A stretch of 64,000 nucleotides of DNA from an uncultured Dehalococcoidales bacterium (GTDB taxonomy: Bacteria; Chloroflexota; Dehalococcoidia; Lucifugimonadales; Lucifugimonadaceae). The stretch lies in NCBI GenBank assembly GCA_964434385.1, contig CAYSUW010000002.1, positions 72,641 to 136,640 of the forward strand. The letters run 5' to 3'. The notes beneath the pieces were generated by a model. The model did not search any database and was not told where the DNA came from. It saw only the letters and a program-made list of their open reading frames with translations. Shown piece by piece: positions 55,443 through 57,674 of the stretch (positions within the stretch are counted from its first letter, which is position 1; every line of letters begins with the position of its first letter). The translations under genes and the position numbers were made by a program.

Positions 55443-56938
55443 AAAATAAATTAAAGTCTCAAAAAAAAATAGCAATTATTGGCGCAGGAATGGGAGGATT
55501 ATCAGCTTCTATTCATTTAGCATCTAGAGGTTTTGAAGTAACTATATTTGAGAAGAATAATTCTTTGGGAGGAAGATGTAATGTGATTGAAGAAGAAGGC
55601 TTCAAATTTGACTTAGGTCCTTCCTTATTAAATTATCCCTGGGTTTTTAAAGAATTATTCAAAACTGCAGGAGAAAATTTTGAAAATCATATTGAATTAT
55701 TAGAAGTAAAATCAGGAGTTAAATTCCTTTGGGATAATGGTGAACATTTTAATATTTCAGGTGATTATGCAGATTTAAATCATGAAATTCAAAGGTTAGA
55801 AGGCACAAATAATAGAAATCTTCAAAAATTTCTTAATAAAAATAAATCTAGATATGATATAGCTTTTAAAAAATTACTTAATAAAAACCTTGATAACCCA
55901 CTATCCTGGGCCAGAAATTTAGGAATTAGAGAAATTTTAACTGGAAGTATAATAACTTCCATGCATAAAGACTTATCGAAATATTTTTCAAACAATCATG
56001 TAATTGAAGCATTCGGTTCTTATTCTATGTATTTAGGTGGTTCTCCTTATGATATTCCAGGATTCTTTTCTATCTTGCCTTATGGAGAAATTATGTATGG
56101 ATTGTGGATGCCTAAAGGAGGTATGTATTCTCTCATAGAATCATTGGAAAAAATATTGAATAAATTAGGGGTACAAGTCTTCAAGAACACAAATATTTCA
56201 GAAATCATTATAAATAACAAAAAAGCTGTAGGCATTAAAACATCTGAAGGAAAAGAGTTAAATTTTGATCTTATTGTTTCTAATCTAGATTTGCCTACTA
56301 CTATGACAGAATTAATATCAAATCCAGAAAACACTCAAAAACAAAGTTATGAAAAATTGCCAATGACTCCATCTGTACTAACTTTTTATTGGGGAGTAAA
56401 AAAGAAGATAAATTTTCCTCACCATATGATTTTTCTTCCTACAGAGTATAAAAAAACTTTTGATGATTTATTTTACAAAAAAATTATTCCCCCAGGGTTA
56501 CCTTTTTATACCAGTTCTTCAACTACTACAGATCCTGATTTGGCTCCCAAAAACCATTCAACACTATTTGTATTAATTCCTTTACCAATTGTAGGAAATC
56601 ATTCTTCAAATATTACTCTGGAAAAATCAGTACCTGAAATTAAAAATTTAGTAATAGAAAAATTTAGAAATCATAACATAAATTTTGACCTAGAGGATAT
56701 CTGTTATGAGAAAATTTTAACTCCTCAAGATTGGAAATCTCAATTTGGTTTATTTAAAGGTTCCGCCTTTGGTTTGTCACATAACTTAAGTAACATTGGC
56801 CTTTTCAGAAAAAAAAATAAATCAAAAATTTCAAATCTATATTTTACTGGAGCAAGTACGAGTCCCGGAACAGGACTACCAATGGTTACGATAAGTGGAA
56901 AATTAACTGCAGATAGGATAGAAAATGATTTACGTTGA
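55439..56938 (+). CDS. crtI: CrtI-family carotenoid desaturase (CrtI/CrtN)
   Basis: IAIIGAGMGGLSA...EKNNSLGGR FAD fold and C-terminal FTGASTSPGTGLPMV. ATGA junction with crtB; the track's start at 55409 lies inside crtB. Confidence 0.8.
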   Translation: MKNKLKSQKKIAIIGAGMGGLSASIHLASRGFEVTIFEKNNSLGGRCNVIEEEGFKFDLGPSLLNYPWVFKELFKTAGENFENHIELLEVKSGVKFLWDNGEHFNISGDYADLNHEIQRLEGTNNRNLQKFLNKNKSRYDIAFKKLLNKNLDNPLSWARNLGIREILTGSIITSMHKDLSKYFSNNHVIEAFGSYSMYLGGSPYDIPGFFSILPYGEIMYGLWMPKGGMYSLIESLEKILNKLGVQVFKNTNISEIIINNKKAVGIKTSEGKELNFDLIVSNLDLPTTMTELISNPENTQKQSYEKLPMTPSVLTFYWGVKKKINFPHHMIFLPTEYKKTFDDLFYKKIIPPGLPFYTSSSTTTDPDLAPKNHSTLFVLIPLPIVGNHSSNITLEKSVPEIKNLVIEKFRNHNINFDLEDICYEKILTPQDWKSQFGLFKGSAFGLSHNLSNIGLFRKKNKSKISNLYFTGASTSPGTGLPMVTISGKLTADRIENDLR

Positions 56939-57674
56939 AAAATATGGAAATGGTAAGGAAATACTAATTGGAATTCATGGATGGGGAGGTTCTAATCAAA
57001 CATTTCTTCCTCTAAAAAATCTAGTACATAAAGATTACTCAATGATTAATTTAGATCTCCCTGGTTACGGAAAATCATCTGTTTTATCTGAATGGAATCT
57101 TCCAAACCTAATTGAACATATCACAGAGAAAATCTTAAAAGTTTCCGAAAATAAACCTGTGAAAATTTTAGGTAATTGTAGTGGAGCTCTTCTGGCTGCA
57201 TTAATTTCCAAATCCACTAAAATTAACGTATCCCATATGTATTTAATTGATCCTTTTTCTTATGCGCCTTGGTACTTTAAAATCTTCACAAATAAATTTT
57301 TTGGAGAATATGCATACAAAACTACATTTAAAAACCCTCTTGGAAGAGTAATTACTAATTTGTCTTTATCAAGTAAAAAACAAAAAGAGACAAATTTAAC
57401 TTCATCTTTTAAAAATATTGATCCAGATGTTTCTCTAAATTATCTTAAGATGCTTGTAGGATTAGAGAATACTAATGCTCTTGAAAACATTAATTGTCCC
57501 ATAACAATTATTCATGGAGATAAAACATTTAAATCTGTATTCAAAAGCCTAATTTATTATCAAAGAATTTGGGAAAAACCCACAATAATTGAACTAAAAA
57601 AAGTTGGGCATCTTCCTATAGAAGAAGCTCCAAGTGAAATTAGTAAAATTATTTTCAACTCAAAGCAAAATTAA
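56925..57674 (+). CDS. alpha/beta-hydrolase fold protein with an apparent Cys nucleophile (G-N-C-S-G)
   Basis: HGWGGS oxyanion-hole motif, nucleophile elbow ILGNCSGALL (Cys85, TGT 57177-57179), IIHGDKT (Asp) and VGHLP (His). Confidence 0.72.
   Translation: MIYVEKYGNGKEILIGIHGWGGSNQTFLPLKNLVHKDYSMINLDLPGYGKSSVLSEWNLPNLIEHITEKILKVSENKPVKILGNCSGALLAALISKSTKINVSHMYLIDPFSYAPWYFKIFTNKFFGEYAYKTTFKNPLGRVITNLSLSSKKQKETNLTSSFKNIDPDVSLNYLKMLVGLENTNALENINCPITIIHGDKTFKSVFKSLIYYQRIWEKPTIIELKKVGHLPIEEAPSEISKIIFNSKQN

Follow-up and report, generated by a model that had tools for sequence, protein, structure and literature searches.

Why should an alpha/beta-hydrolase that carries cysteine at the position of the canonical catalytic serine be encoded in the middle of a carotenoid operon? 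The question is raised by a 64,000-nucleotide stretch of DNA, hereafter the window, from an uncultured Dehalococcoidales bacterium (family Lucifugimonadaceae; contig CAYSUW010000002.1 of assembly GCA_964434385.1). The host is a small-genome marine member of the Chloroflexota with an assembly of 1.56 Mb. The gene (56925-57674, + strand) runs from an ATG at 56925 to a TAA at 57672-57674 and encodes a 249-residue protein, P0001, referred to here as ABH (alpha/beta-hydrolase). It shares 14 nt with the upstream crtI-family desaturase frame (stop codon 56936-56938), and the single base 57675 separates it from the ATG of a GT2 glycosyltransferase gene at 57676. An earlier sequence-only reading of the locus had reported the same overlap and the same 1-nt spacing, and the DNA agrees with it. 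Our leading answer, which is tentative and to which we give somewhat less than an even chance, is that ABH is a thioester-forming acyltransferase that would take the place of the carotenoid acyltransferase CruD without being homologous to it.

An invariant cysteine at the nucleophile elbow

ABH matches the Pfam profiles Abhydrolase_1 (39.2 bits against a cut-off of 25.8; E=8e-10) and Abhydrolase_6 (33.0 bits against 26.3), and its AlphaFold2 model, for which 19 homologues were used as input, has a pLDDT of 92.4 and a pTM of 0.90. Foldseek searches with this model returned only generic capped alpha/beta-hydrolases (probability 1.00, TM-scores of 0.75-0.80, 13-20% identity), among them BioH, MGS-M2, D14/KAI2, epoxide hydrolases and dehalogenases. 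The features that define the superfamily, a profile match combined with the fold and a nucleophile placed on the elbow, are both found in ABH. The elbow itself, G83-N-C85-S-G87 (57171-57185, + strand), places Cys85 (TGT, 57177-57179) where strand 79-84 gives way to helix 87-95 in the model, and in the profile alignment this residue pairs with the catalytic Ser82 of BioH (PDB 4nmw). The sequence-only reading had recognised an alpha/beta-hydrolase with a G-N-C-S-G elbow and this cysteine codon, and had named a structure prediction as the check on its placement; sequence, Pfam and model concur on the first point, and the model puts Cys85 on the nucleophile elbow.

A phmmer search with ABH against 1.84 billion cluster representatives yielded 142 proteins at E≤1e-10. 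Intact elbows among the matches were nearly all G-x-C-x-G, with Ser-containing elbows (GHSxG) found only below about E=1e-12. For counts of conservation, 81 full-length sequences, each representing a 50%-identity cluster, were aligned; Cys85, Gly87 and His229 were each present in 81 of 81. Genome assemblies supplied 80 species-level orthologs, and all 80 likewise keep Cys85, encoded by TGC in 64 and by TGT in 16. Because cysteine persists in every ortholog despite the use of two codons, the residue must be kept by selection, and its invariance in the 81 representatives and the 80 species, with both codons, rules out a sequencing error or a chance change from serine.

The remainder of the active site is partly canonical. 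The oxyanion-hole motif H18-G-W-G-G22 (56976-56990, + strand) follows strand 12-17 of the model and is well represented in the alignment (H18 in 72, G19 in 80 and W20 in 76 of the 81 sequences). His229 (CAT, 57609-57611, + strand) lies in the loop that follows strand 220-224 and is the counterpart of His235 in the alignment to BioH, and the best reading of these sequences is that Cys85 is the catalytic nucleophile, activated by this histidine. The canonical acid position after strand beta7 is occupied by Thr201 (57525-57527, + strand), which aligns with Asp207 of BioH and is Thr in 64 and Ser in 17 representatives. Set against the Ser-His-Asp standard, ABH therefore departs at the serine nucleophile and at the beta7 acid, and conforms at the histidine after the last strand. 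The sequence-only reading had named HGWGGS (residues 18-23), HGDKT (197-201) and GHLP (228-231) as the usual motifs for the oxyanion hole, the acid and the histidine. All three are present, but the aspartate of HGDKT is not conserved as a catalytic acid: position 199 (Asp199, 57519-57521) varies widely (E36, S10, A8, D6, R5 and Q4 among the 81), and this variability, together with its placement two residues before the canonical acid position, rules it out for that role.

Conservation instead singles out Asp109 (GAT, 57249-57251, + strand), directly after strand beta6 (102-108), as the candidate catalytic acid. Position 109 is the sole one that is always acidic (D55 and E26 of 81), and the corresponding motif has Asp in 76 of the 80 orthologs. 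Some alpha/beta-hydrolases, including some dehalogenases and lipases, do place their acid after beta6. The supporting acid of ABH is probably Asp109 rather than a canonical beta7 aspartate, and the enzyme would operate with a Cys85-His229-Asp109 triad or else with a Cys-His dyad.

The cap domain carries conserved aromatic and hydrophobic residues (F111, P115, Y117, F121, Y131, F135 and F162 in the same alignment) and a near-invariant arginine, Arg141 (AGA, 57345-57347, + strand; R73, Q6 and G2 of 81). Arg141 aligns at high posterior probability with Arg142 of BioH within a 'VERFL' segment, in a cap domain whose alignments to BioH are remote. BioH contacts the acyl carrier protein (ACP) through four cap arginines, of which Arg142 is one (PMC6733898). 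A possible contact of Arg141 with an acyl carrier, either ACP or coenzyme A (CoA), is a lead suggested by this alignment.

ABH is a member of the alpha/beta-hydrolase superfamily in a subfamily outside all curated families tested. Its best match among the NCBIfam equivalogs, MenH (TIGR03695), scores 47.3 bits against a cut-off of 208.55, followed by BioH itself (TIGR01738; 42.9 bits against a curated cut-off of 206.95) and BchO (TIGR03056; 29.1 bits against 172.55), while PcaD, PHA depolymerase and EstV are all far below their curated cut-offs. Identity with PhaC or dienelactone hydrolase was rejected as well, with no PhaC_N or DLH Pfam match at E≤1 and neither enzyme among the PDB sequence matches listed. 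CruD belongs to PF01553, to which P0001 has no match, and the earlier statement that CruD is of a different family is correct. The PDB sequence and fold matches are generic enzymes with Ser, Asp or other residues, and no solved relative with a Cys nucleophile is among them. Distant representatives with GFCMG or GQCMG elbows matched no curated family, and we found no description of this ABH in the literature searched or in the curated family libraries. Public annotations call its members either 'alpha/beta fold hydrolase' or 'pimeloyl-ACP methyl ester carboxylesterase', and the latter label is mis-transferred and wrong. A soluble, cytoplasmic protein is the best reading of its localisation. For the purposes of this analysis we define a carotenoid-cluster Cys-ABH subfamily by a G-x-C-x-G elbow, an HGW motif, Asp or Glu after beta6, Thr or Ser at the beta7 acid site and a gene directly downstream of crtI; the window ABH has every one of these features.

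Genomic linkage, an ABH-less sister genus and the distribution of CruD

Orthologs were gathered with an ABH peptide pattern alone, blind to gene context, which gave 80 loci, one per species, and neighbouring genes were then called by tblastn with the window's own proteins. At least these 80 species, besides that of the window, carry the subfamily, and about six phyla are represented. Acidobacteriota (Blastocatellia, Pyrinomonadaceae, Bryobacteraceae) account for most of them, SAR202/Dehalococcoidia for about twelve, Planctomycetota and Bradymonadia for two each, and the Gemmatimonadota and the Myxococcota for one each. A further member, found separately in a Bacteroidota/Kapabacteria metagenome-assembled genome (MAG), lies in a carotenoid operon between crtI and GT2. 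The gene immediately upstream of ABH was crtI in 70 of the 73 loci with sufficient flank (median alignment gap 2 nt), and GT2 followed at ≤4.5 kb downstream in 51 of 57. The sequence-only reading had made its proposal depend on conserved linkage to carotenoid genes in relatives, and such linkage extends across phyla. Gene order is near-universally crtB-crtI-ABH-(crtE)-(AhpC-like)-GT2-crtD-cruF, with a differing arrangement in the Bradymonadia. In SAR202 and Bacteroidota the six-gene operon consists purely of carotenoid genes and includes no stress genes.

Upstream of the acidobacterial clusters lie genes for a MerR/B12-binding (CarH/LitR-like) regulator, for a DUF1731 epimerase and for a photolyase (L001:1025-5380), and an AhpC/TSA-like redoxin is encoded between crtE and GT2 (L001:9902-10402, L017:11732-12259). 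From its gene content, the acidobacterial cluster looks like a light-induced regulon, in which the redoxin could maintain the catalytic cysteine in its reduced form. Clusters typical of Acidobacteriota or SAR202 also occur in MAGs labelled Heliomicrobium, Heliobacteriaceae, Clostridia, Rhodobiaceae and Rhodospirillaceae (L008, L017, L028, L033, L034, L038, L041, L059, L065 and L073), whose taxon labels or binning are probably wrong.

Within the Chloroflexota the gene is rare. Among 301 genomes, an even draw across the phylum and not a census, an ABH ortholog was present in two, the window's own genome (325 bits) and another of the same family (G309; 294 bits), and all others scored ≤92 bits. 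A 97% complete genome from a different genus of this family (G168) carries crtB, crtI, GT2, crtD and cruF side by side in that order (L159:9920-15675). Its crtI and GT2 frames overlap, the operon contains no remnant of ABH, and no ortholog exists anywhere else in that genome. CrtI therefore does not need ABH, and the acceptor of GT2 does not depend on it; an essential role as a partner of CrtI is disfavoured by the same operon. ABH is therefore a tailoring step that the pathway can do without, and probably its last. In G309 the gene for a second, unrelated hydrolase (L160:11091-11906) comes after cruF and overlaps it by 8 nt; its product, a Lipase_3/PGAP1-like protein of 271 residues, has no counterpart in the window.

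The distribution of CruD is complementary. Other Chloroflexota have clusters of the type crtB-GT2-CruF::X-crtI. Of three fused CruF ORFs scanned, two have a PF01553 acyltransferase domain as X, and the third has a C-terminal half whose homology to these domains is shown by tblastn. Thermomicrobium roseum, which makes acylated oscillol diglycosides, has the same CruF-fusion architecture, and the fused domain has been given the role of CruD (PMC2615216). Herpetosiphon and Rhodothermus have cruC plus cruD. Queries with the CruD domain match 19 of the 30 top CruF loci of Chloroflexota. They find nothing in the 64-kb window, in 89 ABH-type loci or in 14 complete ABH-carrying genomes from three phyla, with two matches in the positive control, G120. 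Conversely, the CruD-fusion genomes of the 301-genome survey have no ABH ortholog. In the genomes examined the two are mutually exclusive: those with ABH are without CruD, and those with CruD are without ABH. CruF::PF01553 fusions are widespread in non-SAR202 Chloroflexota (L161:6086-7807, L163:6119-8086, G120:C1:5556120-5556833), and several genomes, G120 among them, hold two.

The window operon has the order crtB-crtI-ABH-GT2-crtD-cruF, all on the + strand, and all five junctions overlap or abut. It begins with crtB (54435-55442), a member of the phytoene/squalene synthase family (PF00494, E=2e-45). The longest frame of the crtI-family desaturase (55409-56938; TIGR02734 crtI_fam, 391.6 bits, above cut-off) opens at a TTG at 55409; its true start is likely the in-frame ATG at 55439, which forms ATGA with the crtB stop (TGA, 55440-55442) and lies upstream of the FAD-binding GxGxxG motif. 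Downstream of ABH, the membrane GT2 glycosyltransferase (57676-58803; PF00535, E=4e-26) is CruC/CruG-like, its top NCBIfam matches being CruG and HpnB, both below cut-off; a longer alternative start exists at GTG 57634, and a relative at 92% identity (L007) favours ATG 57676. The next gene (58796-60256) encodes a CrtD-like 1-hydroxycarotenoid 3,4-desaturase, above cut-off for crtI_fam and with CrtD as its best equivalog (318 bits, below that family's cut-off). The last (60246-60968; PF04240, E=1e-31) encodes a CruF-type carotenoid 1,2-hydratase of 240 residues without a fused acyltransferase domain. There is no cyclase and no acyltransferase among the genes of the window operon, and the product expected from them is an acyclic 1-hydroxy-3,4-didehydro carotenoid glycoside. 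Converging on cruF with an 8-nt overlap is a gene for an NAD-dependent epimerase/dehydratase (60961-61992, - strand; GalE/LegB-like, below cut-offs), which may supply a nucleotide sugar to GT2.

Candidate reactions for ABH

Alpha/beta-hydrolases with a Cys nucleophile, such as PhaC and dienelactone hydrolase, work via thioester intermediates. In the pathway we propose, CrtB and CrtI would produce lycopene, which would be hydrated by CruF, desaturated at the 3,4 position by CrtD and glycosylated by GT2. As an enzyme dedicated to tailoring in this pathway, ABH would then be loaded with a fatty acyl group by acyl-ACP or acyl-CoA, the thioester donor, to form an acyl-S-Cys85 intermediate, and would pass the acyl group on to a sugar hydroxyl of the carotenoid glycoside. 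The product would be a glycoside fatty-acid ester, and the reaction would be the one that CruD, an unrelated PlsC-type enzyme, performs elsewhere. The analysis shows the fold, the elbow placement of Cys85, the invariance of Cys and His, the conserved operon membership, the dispensability of ABH and the absence of CruD; acyl transfer itself, like its donor and acceptor and a catalytic part for Asp109, is inferred. An acyltransferase fits an optional late step, the absence of CruD, a soluble protein and an aromatic and hydrophobic cap, and the idea gains indirect support because ABH is dispensable in the sister genus and its distribution is complementary to that of CruD.

Several observations weigh against an acyltransferase acting on the glycoside. 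Organisms that do not acylate their carotenoids at all would lack CruD just the same. The cluster is divided between two loci in five Blastocatellia genomes: one has ABH together with crtB-crtI-crtE, the other crtD-cruF, and GT2 was located at the latter in three of these genomes (G001, G004 and G005); the tightest linkage of ABH is to crtB-crtI, not to GT2. Orthologs at 38-39% identity occur in a Myxococcota MAG (G006) and a Gemmatimonadota MAG (G007) without detectable CrtI or CruF, absence calls in the MAGs G006-G009 being weak, as their completeness is not known. All known carriers are uncultured MAGs, with no cultured host among the named members. A distant Cys-containing subgroup (about 26% identity, with GSCSG and HGWGS motifs) lies outside carotenoid clusters, and for this reason we confine the claim of linkage to the subfamily at or above about 33% identity.

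The Gemmatimonadota MAG has two tandem SQS_PSY genes that are HpnC/HpnD-like (G007:C1:176471-178252) and no CrtI-family gene, and may make squalene or hopanoids rather than carotenoids. The distant subgroup is represented by five loci (L097, L098, L169, L170 and L171); it adjoins a ribosomal protein S14 paralogue in L097, L169 and L170, and a BipA/TypA GTPase gene is nearby in the last two.

That ABH is instead a true hydrolase (an esterase, lipase or thioesterase) in which Cys simply replaces Ser is, in our judgement, unlikely. Such an enzyme might strip or rearrange the acyl groups of carotenoid esters or membrane lipids, or release fatty acids from acyl-ACP or acyl-CoA. Its nearest relatives in sequence and structure are esterases (BioH, the EstV lipase, an intracellular PHA depolymerase and MGS-M2), dienelactone hydrolase is a textbook case of a purely hydrolytic Cys enzyme of this fold, and the distant Cys-containing relatives show that such proteins exist away from carotenoid genes. 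No curated esterase cut-off is reached by ABH, however, and its clusters and genomes are without an acyltransferase to make an ester substrate, so that an enzyme undoing a step that is not encoded makes little sense. Quite unlikely is a general light- or oxidative-stress enzyme that is not specific to carotenoids and merely shares a light-induced operon with them, for example to clear oxidised lipids or thioesters. The regulator, photolyase and redoxin that accompany the acidobacterial operon would suit this role, as would the two MAGs with orthologs but no detectable CrtI or CruF, and the Gemmatimonadota ortholog adjoins a DUF1731 epimerase of the family also seen in the acidobacterial light cluster. 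Against it stand the SAR202 and Bacteroidota operons, in which carotenoid genes alone are present and the ABH frame overlaps or abuts its neighbours crtI and GT2 on either side, and an adjacency to crtI across phyla that is far tighter than membership of a common regulon requires.

Less probable again is non-acyl chemistry on the carotenoid itself, either C-2/C-2' hydroxylation of the oscillol or myxol type or polyene isomerisation driven by thiol addition. It would explain why ABH is translationally coupled to crtI and remains with the early genes in split clusters; the cap is rich in conserved aromatic residues, and the best curated match of GT2, far below cut-off, is the 2'-O-glycosyltransferase CruG. 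The 2,2'-hydroxylase of related pathways has been reported as unknown (PMC2615216; PMC7414004). Yet G168 retains GT2 without ABH, so that the glycosyl acceptor is independent of ABH, Thermomicrobium-type clusters also need a 2-hydroxylase and are without the ABH family, and no precedent for such chemistry is known among Cys alpha/beta-hydrolases. We regard as a long shot the specific proposal that Cys85 serves not acyl transfer but a new polyene or end-group chemistry, by supplying the C-2/C-2' hydroxyl or by thiol addition; if true, the reaction type would be new to the alpha/beta-hydrolase fold or to carotenoid biosynthesis. The translational coupling to crtI would also suit a non-catalytic partner that serves CrtI or CrtB as, for example, a scaffold or lipid-binding chaperone and in which the cysteine would not matter, but this is very improbable: the absolute invariance of Cys85, His229 and Gly87 and the conserved oxyanion motif point to catalysis, and the sister genus runs the same operon without ABH.

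Comparison with known systems

Many bacteria have carotenoid glycoside esters as major pigments of their membranes. To our knowledge, only two unrelated types of acyltransferase, CruD and CrtO, are known to make them. ABH, as the acyltransferase we favour, would be a third candidate type, compact, soluble and cysteine-based, and one conserved in operons of abundant uncultured lineages (marine SAR202, soil Acidobacteriota, Planctomycetota and Kapabacteria). We regard it as a new family of enzymes for a kind of tailoring that is already known. If the assignment is true, ABH would exemplify non-orthologous displacement in clean form, would bring to the alpha/beta-hydrolase fold one more of its rare members with a Cys nucleophile, here with the acid residue moved to another position, would improve the prediction of pigments from metagenomes and would provide a small soluble enzyme for the engineering of esterified carotenoids. 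Because a natural pair of operons with and without ABH exists within one family, the role of the protein is directly testable.

The closest systems by sequence and fold are BioH and MenH, the pimeloyl-ACP methyl ester esterase and the SHCHC synthase (PDB 4nmw, E=5e-16, TM-score 0.77). ABH resembles them in its size, helical cap, HGW oxyanion motif and histidine position, and differs from them in having Cys for Ser and Thr or Ser for the canonical Asp; they act in biotin or menaquinone synthesis, whereas ABH is found in the context of carotenoid synthesis. With PhaC and dienelactone hydrolase it shares the G-x-C-x-G elbow, the Cys-His pair and the expected thioester intermediate. PhaC moves acyl groups from CoA thioesters to a hydroxyl, but it is a much larger protein, and the acid residue of ABH is placed differently from that of either enzyme.

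CruD (PlsC-type, PF01553) is like ABH in the proposed reaction, fatty acylation of the sugar, and in sharing an operon with GT2 and CruF. The folds are unrelated, and whereas CruD is often fused to CruF in Chloroflexota, ABH is a separate and apparently soluble protein encoded after crtI. The proposed reaction is also like that of CrtO in staphyloxanthin synthesis, to which ABH is likewise unrelated. Mechanistic analogues are found in eukaryotes: LRAT esterifies an isoprenoid alcohol with a Cys-His pair and an acyl-thioester, and the plant xanthophyll esterifying enzymes (PYP1/XES and the GDSL-type XAT) are hydrolase-fold proteins that work as carotenoid acyltransferases. These enzymes belong to other folds or families and act on a carotenoid or retinoid hydroxyl, whereas ABH would act on the sugar.

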